A stretch of DNA of 64,000 nt from the IMG/VR virus record IMGVR_UViG_3300034095_001474, positions 96,001-160,000 of that record; one strand, written 5' to 3'. The notes beneath the pieces were generated by a model, which was given only the letters and a program-made list of their open reading frames with translations, was not told where the DNA came from and made no database searches. Of this stretch, positions 54,592 to 55,138 are shown one piece after another; positions within the stretch are counted from its first letter, which is position 1, and every line of letters starts with the position of its first letter. Origin of the DNA: a virus. Taxonomy: Duplodnaviria; Caudoviricetes. The position numbers and the translations under genes are program-made.

Positions 54592-54618
54592 TTAAGGAGG
54601 TGCTTTAATCTAATTCAT
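54592..54618 (-). CDS. Minigene M-N-(TAG)-I-K-A-P-P-stop
   Basis: ATG AAT TAG ATT AAA GCA CCT CCT TAA. Confidence 0.4.
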
Positions 54619-54629
54619 AATCTATAGTT

Positions 54630-54974
54630 TTAGTTATTGTTATTTTTACCCAATAGAGGACACGAACTAGTAATTTTTTTACTAGCATCAGATGGTTCAA
54701 AAGCTATTGCGGTAATTTCGTTATTGATGTCTGGCTCTCGGAATATAGTATATTTAATTCCTCTGATTGCAGCTTTCTCTGAGAGTTTATATAACTCTTC
54801 CTCATTTGCTACTGTTAATAATGCCAAATAATTTGATTTTGTTTGCCATTCTGACGCTTCTTTAGGATGAGCGTGCTGAAAATCAATGGCAGCATGTGCT
54901 GATTGCACTGCTTGTGTTGGTAATGATAAGTCACGTCTTGTGACAACTCTTAATTTTGAAATCTAATTTTTCAT
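54630..54974 (-). CDS. PTH2-like peptidyl-tRNA hydrolase with an in-frame TAG at codon 4
   Basis: ATG AAA AAT TAG ATT TCA AAA TTA AGA GTT GTC ACA AGA CGT GAC...; KLRVVTRRDL...QAVQSAHA...FREPD...ITAIA. Confidence 0.75.
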
Positions 54975-55024
54975 TTTCTTTTTTATATAAATATATCACT
55001 TTTTTTAAAAAGGTAAACCTTTTG

Positions 55025-55095
55025 TGGTCTTAGAGGGAATCGAACCCTCACTATCGGTTTTAGAGACCGTTACGCTGCCGTTACATCATAAGACC
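55025..55095 (-). tRNA. Amber suppressor tRNA(CTA)
   Basis: GGTCTTA/TAAGACC acceptor, CGGT-CT CTA AA-ACCG, canonical T arm. Confidence 0.88.
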
Positions 55096-55107
55096 AAATC
55101 TATAGTG

Positions 55108-55138
55108 CAAATATACTAAAGATTTTTTAATTTGTCAA
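55108..55138 (-). promoter_or_regulatory. Bacteroidota-type promoter for the suppressor tRNA
   Basis: TTGACA...TATATTTG. Confidence 0.75.

Follow-up and report, generated by a model that had tools for sequence, protein, structure and literature searches.

The locus described here lies in a window of 64,000 nucleotides (nt) of tailed-phage DNA (positions 96,001 to 160,000 of IMG/VR record IMGVR_UViG_3300034095_001474). It consists of a tRNA gene with anticodon CUA (tRNA-CUA), of the amber suppressor type, followed 50 nt downstream by the ATG of a gene for a peptidyl-tRNA hydrolase 2-like (Pth2-fold) protein that carries an early in-frame TAG. The window has a G+C content of 32% and its genes are largely encoded on the minus strand. 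Besides its open reading frames (ORFs), it has 33 tRNA genes and one transfer-messenger RNA (tmRNA) over the 64 kb; blastn comparison of the locus with GenBank phages returned no DNA match.

The tRNA-CUA gene was placed at 55024..55095 on the minus strand by ARAGORN and matched Rfam family RF00005 over its full length with 60.1 bits (gathering score 29; E 1.3e-11). Its anticodon loop, C-U-C-U-A-A-A, is 7 nt long with U33 and a purine at position 37. The molecule has a G1-C72 pair, discriminator A73 and a variable loop of 5 nt, and its CCA end is not encoded. The label ‘tRNA-Pyl’ given by ARAGORN mirrors the anticodon only. Similarity to the other tRNAs of the phage was uninformative as to the amino acid identity, the nearest ones in the window being only 62–67% identical and spread over Glu, Met, Val, Asn and Trp.

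A putative sigma-70-like promoter, identified by consensus match only, precedes the tRNA (TTGACA-17 nt-TATATT, 11/12 in the consensus scan; 55110..55138, minus strand), and like hexamers precede the tRNA in the related loci L002, L003 and L005. The interval between tRNA and gene holds a second promoter-like site (TTTACC-16 nt-TG-n-TATATT; 54990..55017, minus strand) with 9/12 consensus positions and a TG before the second hexamer. Hexamers of the TTGACT/TATAAT type are found at the equivalent position in relatives, for example L076, L084 and L080. To judge from its position, the second site would leave about 9 nt of leader, lacking a strong Shine-Dalgarno sequence, and so points to the first ATG. 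By these consensus matches, tRNA-CUA and the Pth2-fold gene each have a constitutive-looking promoter of their own.

The Pth2-fold gene spans 54630..54974 on the minus strand and counts 114 codons including the TAG, with its stop TAA at 54632-54630. Its 5' end reads ATG (54974-54972) AAA AAT TAG ATT TCA AAA TTA AGA GTT GTC, so that the TAG (54965-54963, the leader with the ATG covering 54963..54974) is the fourth codon, the next base is an A and the frame is unchanged across the TAG. The first canonical start past the TAG is a GTG at residue 23, which is also where the ORF begins under translation table 11. A Pfam PTH2 match (PF01981) covers residues 7–98 with an E-value of 7.9e-10 and 39.4 bits against a cut-off of 23. 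In an AlphaFold2 model of the full-length product, with a mean predicted local distance difference test score (pLDDT) of 91.5, a four-stranded alpha/beta domain was obtained in which residues 8–13 form strand 1, while residues 1–10 scored a pLDDT of 74. A product started at the GTG would thus be without strand 1 and the beginning of helix 1. As read from the letters, a full-length Pth2-like protein would need the TAG to be decoded.

The top 12 matches of the model in a Foldseek search were all structures of the Pth2 family. The best of them were archaeal Pth2 and human Bit1 (top matches 2zv3, 3erj, 1q7s, 1wn2 and 1xty), with template modelling (TM) scores of 0.73–0.80 over 110–119 columns, and a profile search of the PDB sequences likewise retrieved Pth2. 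The catalytic residues of Sulfolobus Pth2 are a Lys preceding strand 1, the DAG-motif Asp and a Thr. The counterparts of this Lys and of the Thr, which belongs to a TAVAIGP-like motif, are the invariant residues K7 and T88 of the phage proteins. The DAG-motif Asp, by contrast, is matched in the alignment by an invariant Glu (E80), two residues ahead of an invariant D82. The protein most likely recycles peptidyl-tRNA.

A conserved RNA structure after the TAG was not found. In a shuffle test of minimum free energy, the first 60 nt had a mean z of −0.16 against synonymous shuffles over 62 sequences, equal to a control segment, and a 5-bp hairpin at 54930-54944 was unsupported as a readthrough-stimulating structure.

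The original prediction, made from the letters alone, had named most of this anatomy. The tRNA with a CTA anticodon was recovered by both ARAGORN and Rfam, and the promoter assigned to it agrees with the near-consensus hexamers. The start of a PTH2-like gene at 54974, 50 nt on, with ATG AAA AAT TAG ATT was read directly and the family confirmed by Pfam. The placing of the first strand upstream of the GTG start agrees with the model.

Contigs from four lake-water metagenome runs, belonging to four studies, span the TAG and show no difference at 54963-54965. One of these (X3) is near-identical to the window and possibly the origin of this DNA, two (X4 and X5) have 0 differences over their parts, and the last (X10) differs at two sites elsewhere and by a one-base indel in the A-run preceding the ATG. 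Contigs from three freshwater RNA libraries, which are not necessarily transcripts, span the 5' part of the gene and continue into the ATG AAA TAG ATT AAC GA of a relative; stretches without coverage carry no weight.

The early TAG is conserved among relatives. In a first round of searching IMG/VR, an in-frame TAG was found in this gene in all 11 relatives (38–91% identity). It lies at codon 3–5 in ten of these loci, after leaders encoding MK, MNN, MN, MT, MTH, MKDT or MG. The eleventh, L011, has a normal start, its TAG is the 34th codon, and a tRNA-CUA follows the gene stop at a distance of about 15 nt. Here the TAG lies inside the fold, where reinitiation cannot bypass it, which argues for readthrough over reinitiation. 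From a wider search 80 loci were kept, 79 of them assessable, and the arrangement of an ATG, one to six codons and a TAG directly before the Pth2 core was present in 76 of the 79. The window, the first- and second-round loci and four GenBank records of huge phages were pooled into a set of 62 distinct proteins, in which the TAG is retained down to approximately 45% identity, and in the GenBank huge phages at 36–54%. These four records have the leaders MK (LR756500), MS (LR756501, 735 kb), MNN (LR745206) and MTH (LR756511) before the TAG. A tRNA-CUA is also present in LR756500, LR756501 and LR756511, at distances of 0.8, 2.1 and 8 kb among the three. A visible Shine-Dalgarno sequence lies 9 and 7 nt before the upstream ATG in LR756501 and LR756511. 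Database proteins that start with MKQINEKL, or that have a Q at the site, are calls with TAG as Gln of an identical layout.

The context of the TAG is biased. Over the 62 proteins the base that follows is A in 46, G in 15, C in one and T in none, that is a purine in 61/62, whereas the ordinary TAG stops of three genomes (the window and two complete relatives) are followed by a purine in 45/85 and by a pyrimidine in 40 (Fisher p 7e-11 against the gene set, in which lineages are not independent). A 3' purine reportedly favours amber suppression, as described by Bossi and by Miller and Albertini. The next codon is ATT in 41 proteins, GTA in nine, GTT in six, ATA in two, AAC in two, and AGC and CTT in one each; ATG, GTG or TTG directly after the TAG occurred in 0/62. 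The interchange of Ile and Val suggests an elongated residue, as a start codon would be read as formyl-methionine.

The partner tRNA is also widespread. Of the 76 loci with the TAG, 67 have a tRNA-CUA on the same strand within the fetched flanks of up to 10 kb, in many cases 45–200 nt upstream of the gene. Some loci scored as lacking it, for example L089 and L102, have a non-canonical tRNA with a CUA loop directly upstream which was missed by ARAGORN. The suppressor sequences and their discriminator bases vary among lineages; the inserted amino acid may thus differ as well, and the N-terminal tail would tolerate this.

A comparable layout was found in cultured phages. Stenotrophomonas phage RAS14 (L053:1925-2800, plus strand) and Xanthomonas phage Xoo-sp13 (L057:2440-3309, plus strand) encode the Pth2 domain as a fusion, behind an HD-type domain, and their genomes have a tRNA-CUA elsewhere. 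A GTG is the annotated start of the RAS14 gene, but the frame ahead of it reads ATG AAG TAG followed by 22 start-less codons, which are conserved with Xoo-sp13, so that the GTG annotation removes 22 conserved residues. The Xoo-sp13 gene is preceded by ATG AAG AAG TAG, three more codons and an ATG. In the Mycobacterium cluster C phages (206 records) the hydrolase lies beside an annotated suppressor tRNA, as in Alice gp150 and gp151, and ATG TAG (GTG TAG in Myrna) stands immediately 5' of the annotated GTG. The tRNAs of Myrna and Phabba (L055:3463-3534 and L056:3462-3532, plus strand) were given the anticodon CUA by ARAGORN and are recorded as Ser or Arg(tct); their loop register is ambiguous. 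Homologues without the TAG were found as ORF295 of XacN1 and in Aeromonas phage avDM6.

The phage uses the standard code. In the window ten of 104 ORFs end in TAG, the DnaJ gene among them, and ORF coverage is 0.835 under code 11 and 0.849 with TAG as sense. The same comparison was made for two complete relatives, G003 (362 kb) and G004 (360 kb, with terminal repeats). Reading TAG as sense raised their coverage from 0.895 to 0.903 and from 0.901 to 0.906, the number of ORFs was 461 under both codes in the one and 505 (code 11) against 499 in the other, and 45/461 and 54/505 genes (about 10%) end in TAG. In a scan for an ATG, at most eight codons, a stop and a long frame, the Pth2 gene was the sole case of a long conserved start-less stretch after a TAG. 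In a homology screen of ORFs with an internal TAG in the coding frames of the three genomes, no other gene aligned cleanly across the TAG; an initial all-frame version of this screen was too noisy and was not used.

The comparative data bear on the remaining claims of the original prediction. The pairing of the TAG with tRNA-CUA is supported by the 76/79 relatives, by L011 and by the leaders of the cultured phages. The check proposed for a sequencing error at 54963-54965 turned up no difference in the four runs. The proposed alignment of homologues revealed a TAG that is not unique to this genome, with a sense codon (Thr) in only 3/79. The assertion that the other ORFs read well in code 11 stands, given the ten TAG-ended ORFs and the near-equal coverage in the window. 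The original prediction is in this way partly supported: its structural part holds, and its functional part, a switch set by suppressor level or by competition with release factor 1, or a sensor of translation or tRNA integrity, is a hypothesis.

These observations are read most economically as a two-gene cassette of tRNA-rich huge phages in which tRNA-CUA decodes the early UAG and synthesis of the hydrolase is conditional on the suppressor. Ribosomes would initiate at the 5'-proximal AUG. At the UAG, either release factor 1 (RF1) would free a tripeptide or tRNA-CUA would insert a residue, leading to the 114-residue protein, and hydrolase output would then scale with the activity of the suppressor relative to RF1. 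With the gate placed in an unstructured N-terminal tail, the abortive product would be nearly costless and any inserted residue tolerated. The hydrolase would in this way be tied to the suppressor, and be made only while stop codons are being read through and to a matching extent. That the linked tRNA-CUA decodes the early UAG is considered very probable. The whole statement of a suppressor-gated hydrolase, comprising both a Pth-type function and a real regulatory dependence, is held with less assurance, but still as the probable one.

As to why tRNA and hydrolase would be coupled, readthrough by a suppressor should give rise to extended proteins, stalled ribosomes and drop-off of peptidyl-tRNA, and making the hydrolase in proportion would match the remedy to the damage; alternatively, the purpose may be negative feedback on the suppressor. 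It can tentatively be proposed, as an idea somewhat more likely to fail than to hold, that the cassette is a conserved readthrough governor of standard-code huge phages, in which a UAG at codon 2–7 gauges suppressor against RF1 and sets the level of a hydrolase that either clears what readthrough leaves behind (peptidyl-tRNA and stalled ribosomes) or feeds back negatively on the suppressor.

Several observations weigh against a suppressor-gated hydrolase. About 10% of the phage genes end in TAG and have no excess of back-up stops (p 0.63), so that an efficient suppressor would add tails to their products, which weighs against a strong constitutive suppressor; with a median of nine codons to the next TAA or TGA, the cost of readthrough may be small. 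Three of the 79 relatives, which are richer in G+C, have the sense codon Thr at the site (M-A-T-I-K against M-S-TAG-I-K). G004 has the TAG, and no canonical tRNA-CUA was found in its whole genome by ARAGORN, relaxed ARAGORN, a motif scan, Rfam or cmscan. A degenerate tRNA-like element of 19.5 bits lies about 400 nt upstream of its Pth2 gene (190278-190348, minus strand, equal to L007:2529-2599, plus strand), with the acceptor stem and T arm of the L001 suppressor, poor D and anticodon arms, and the letters TTCTAAC. As G004 and the three relatives with Thr illustrate, a lineage can lose or alter the gate. LR745206 had no tRNA-CUA in a narrow pattern scan, whose matches were tRNA-Arg and other tRNAs. 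In Xoo-sp13 the ATG four codons after the TAG may allow this lineage to escape the gate, and in cluster C the Shine-Dalgarno spacing fits the GTG, so that the TAG may be outside the translated frame. Finally ATT and ATA, the commonest codons after the TAG, are rare start codons.

Among the other explanations, a neutral dependency fares best. Here the TAG would have drifted into a tolerant N-terminal site of a suppressor-carrying phage, and be read by the tRNA with nothing being regulated. The unstructured tail at residues 1–10 (with its lower pLDDT), the three relatives with Thr at the site and the TAG-less Pth2 of suppressor-carrying phages such as XacN1 are all in keeping with this. Drift should not pick one gene, and no other gene of the three genomes has gained a conserved TAG. 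The TAG has moreover been kept through the identity ranges given above for the 62 distinct proteins and the GenBank huge phages, is found elsewhere in the gene in L011 and before another N-terminal domain in RAS14 and Xoo-sp13, and is followed by a near-universal +4 purine and never by a canonical start. A neutral origin is regarded as unlikely, while keeping an appreciable share of the probability.

It is a good deal less probable that the ATG and TAG delimit a mini-ORF of 3–7 codons, with the hydrolase made through reinitiation or from a near-cognate AUU or AUA start and tRNA-CUA serving another use. ATT or ATA does follow the TAG in 43/62 proteins, G004 is without a canonical tRNA-CUA, and the mycobacteriophages have a GTG directly after the TAG with good Shine-Dalgarno spacing. 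The other 19/62 proteins have GTA, GTT, AAC, AGC or CTT next, none of which is a start, canonical starts never stand there, and the Ile/Val interchange suggests an elongated residue. In L011 the TAG is at codon 34, RAS14 would need a further 22 start-less codons to be crossed, and the Shine-Dalgarno sequences of LR756501 and LR756511 are spaced for the upstream ATG. Termination-reinitiation would call for a usable start at or beside the mini-ORF stop, and in none of the 62 proteins is the TAG followed by ATG, GTG or TTG.

Genome-wide reassignment of TAG (code 15, as in crAss-like and Lak phages), with the window as a standard-code early region, is highly improbable: the phage has a tRNA-CUA and gene callers of public databases have rendered this gene with TAG as Gln, but in two complete relatives of about 360 kb the gain in coverage is slight and the ORF count almost the same, about 10% of genes use TAG as their stop, and homology backs no second in-frame TAG. 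The hallmarks of code 15, many in-frame TAGs and rare TAG stops, were absent from the window, G003 and G004, and genome-wide recoding was rejected. That the TAG is an assembly error or belongs to a decaying pseudogene, as the mere presence of a stop codon could suggest, has a negligible probability and is refuted by the identical letters in contigs of four runs and by its conservation over dozens of lineages with intact, conserved downstream frames.

The cassette is part of a translation-maintenance island, with a CCA-adding enzyme, an FKBP isomerase, an Rnl1-type RNA ligase, an RlaP nucleotidyltransferase, the tmRNA, ClpP, DnaJ and the tRNA array as neighbours. The CCA-adding enzyme or poly(A) polymerase-family nucleotidyltransferase (52437..53552, minus strand; Pfam PolyA_pol head domain, E 1.2e-35) could supply the CCA end missing from the tRNA-CUA gene. 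The phage tmRNA (57925..58303, minus strand; ARAGORN, and Rfam tmRNA with 60.1 bits) has a tag peptide ending in ...GELAVA and is adjoined by a clpP gene (58419-59144, minus strand; Pfam CLP_protease, E 2.3e-58). With the DnaJ gene (59953-60978, ending in ...THQTN-TAG) nearby, these look like a phage-borne pair for trans-translation and degradation. An RNA-repair-type set lies in the same island as the tRNA arrays (39632-40789, 29254-30429, 33236-34543 and 36810-38207, all on the minus strand), its members being an Rnl1-family RNA ligase, an RlaP nucleotidyltransferase, a protein with a PARP catalytic domain and an ATP-dependent DNA ligase.

Four tRNAs of the window have A34, namely Tyr-AUA, Gly-ACC, Thr-AGU and Arg-ACG (20808-20879, 9637-9709, 9713-9786 and 46880-46953, all on the minus strand), and a Tyr tRNA with anticodon AUA is unusual. 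The tRNA-Met call of ARAGORN at 56430-56501 (minus strand) scored 27.2 bits with Rfam, below the gathering score, and has several non-standard acceptor pairs. In the relative G003, an ORF with an RF-1 domain (GGQ) at 51860-52400 (L014:11860-12400, minus strand) is interrupted by an in-frame TAA, one codon ahead of the GGQ (...EYRAV-TAA-FGGQHKN...). A second copy, without interruption, is located at a distance of about 3.3 kb, and no homologue is present in the window. In L064, an RF-1 domain gene was located 1.3 kb upstream of the Pth2 gene.

Phage suppressor tRNAs have so far been explained only where a stop codon is recoded across many genes, and none has a known target in standard-code jumbo phages. 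Here one gene of the translation-rescue type has a conserved and, it would seem, deliberately placed UAG beside a suppressor. If the tentative reading as a readthrough governor is true, the gated gene would be the first natural target for these ‘orphan’ jumbo-phage suppressor tRNAs, including those of cultured Stenotrophomonas, Xanthomonas and possibly Mycobacterium phages, in which the coupling can be tested directly. A real coupling would amount to a natural gate on the translation of one gene, with a tRNA as its working part, would show how a phage handles the side effects of readthrough, and would offer an evolved pair of parts for genetic-code engineering (the tRNA, and an early UAG with a +4 purine). 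For annotation, code-11 callers shorten the gene (RAS14, and IMG entries of 92–106 residues) and code-15 calls print an undemonstrated Q. Literature searches for the pairing of a tRNA-CUA with an early-TAG hydrolase gene retrieved no paper describing it.

Compared with archaeal and eukaryotic Pth2, the full-length phage protein shares the fold and conserves the Lys before strand 1 and the Thr, but is only 20–28% identical and has a Glu (E80) in place of the Asp of the DAG motif. A parallel in regulation is the prfB gene for release factor 2, where an early in-frame UGA is bypassed by a +1 frameshift and the product itself reads that stop. In both cases an early in-frame stop in a translation-factor gene ties, or would tie, output to termination capacity, but in the phage gene the frame is unchanged, the bypass would be by a tRNA and the product is Pth2-like instead of a release factor. 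PTH2 of jumbo phages has been placed in RNA repair and ribosome rescue by Iyer et al. (PMC7824862), a view that the translation-maintenance neighbours of the cassette fit; no suppressor or in-frame stop is mentioned for it there.

The jumbo phage XacN1 (PMC5852040) uses the standard code and has tRNA-CUA genes as well as a peptidyl-tRNA hydrolase. Its authors read through amber stops (N = 18), found no added similarity beyond them and no target of the suppressor (PMC5852040). The Pth2 of XacN1 (ORF295) has no TAG, whereas in the present clade the target would be the 5' end of the hydrolase gene itself. In code 15 phages (crAss-like and Lak phages), TAG is read as Gln and the phages carry suppressor tRNAs (Borges et al., bioRxiv 10.1101/2021.08.26.457843; Peters et al., PMC9523058); a hydrolase is not mentioned by Borges et al. 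(bioRxiv 10.1101/2021.08.26.457843). There, as proposed here, a tRNA-CUA would decode in-frame TAG and make translation conditional on the suppressor. Those phages have many TAGs in late genes and avoid TAG stops, unlike the present phages, which use the standard code with about 10% TAG stops and have a single gene with one TAG at codon 2–7. The closest design is found in the synthetic suppressor-tRNA feed-forward loops (PMC7969014, Nucleic Acids Res 2020), in which an amber suppressor tRNA is combined with an early-TAG target that is made only with the tRNA. Those loops were engineered, and the cassette would be their natural counterpart, with each part under its own constitutive-looking promoter.

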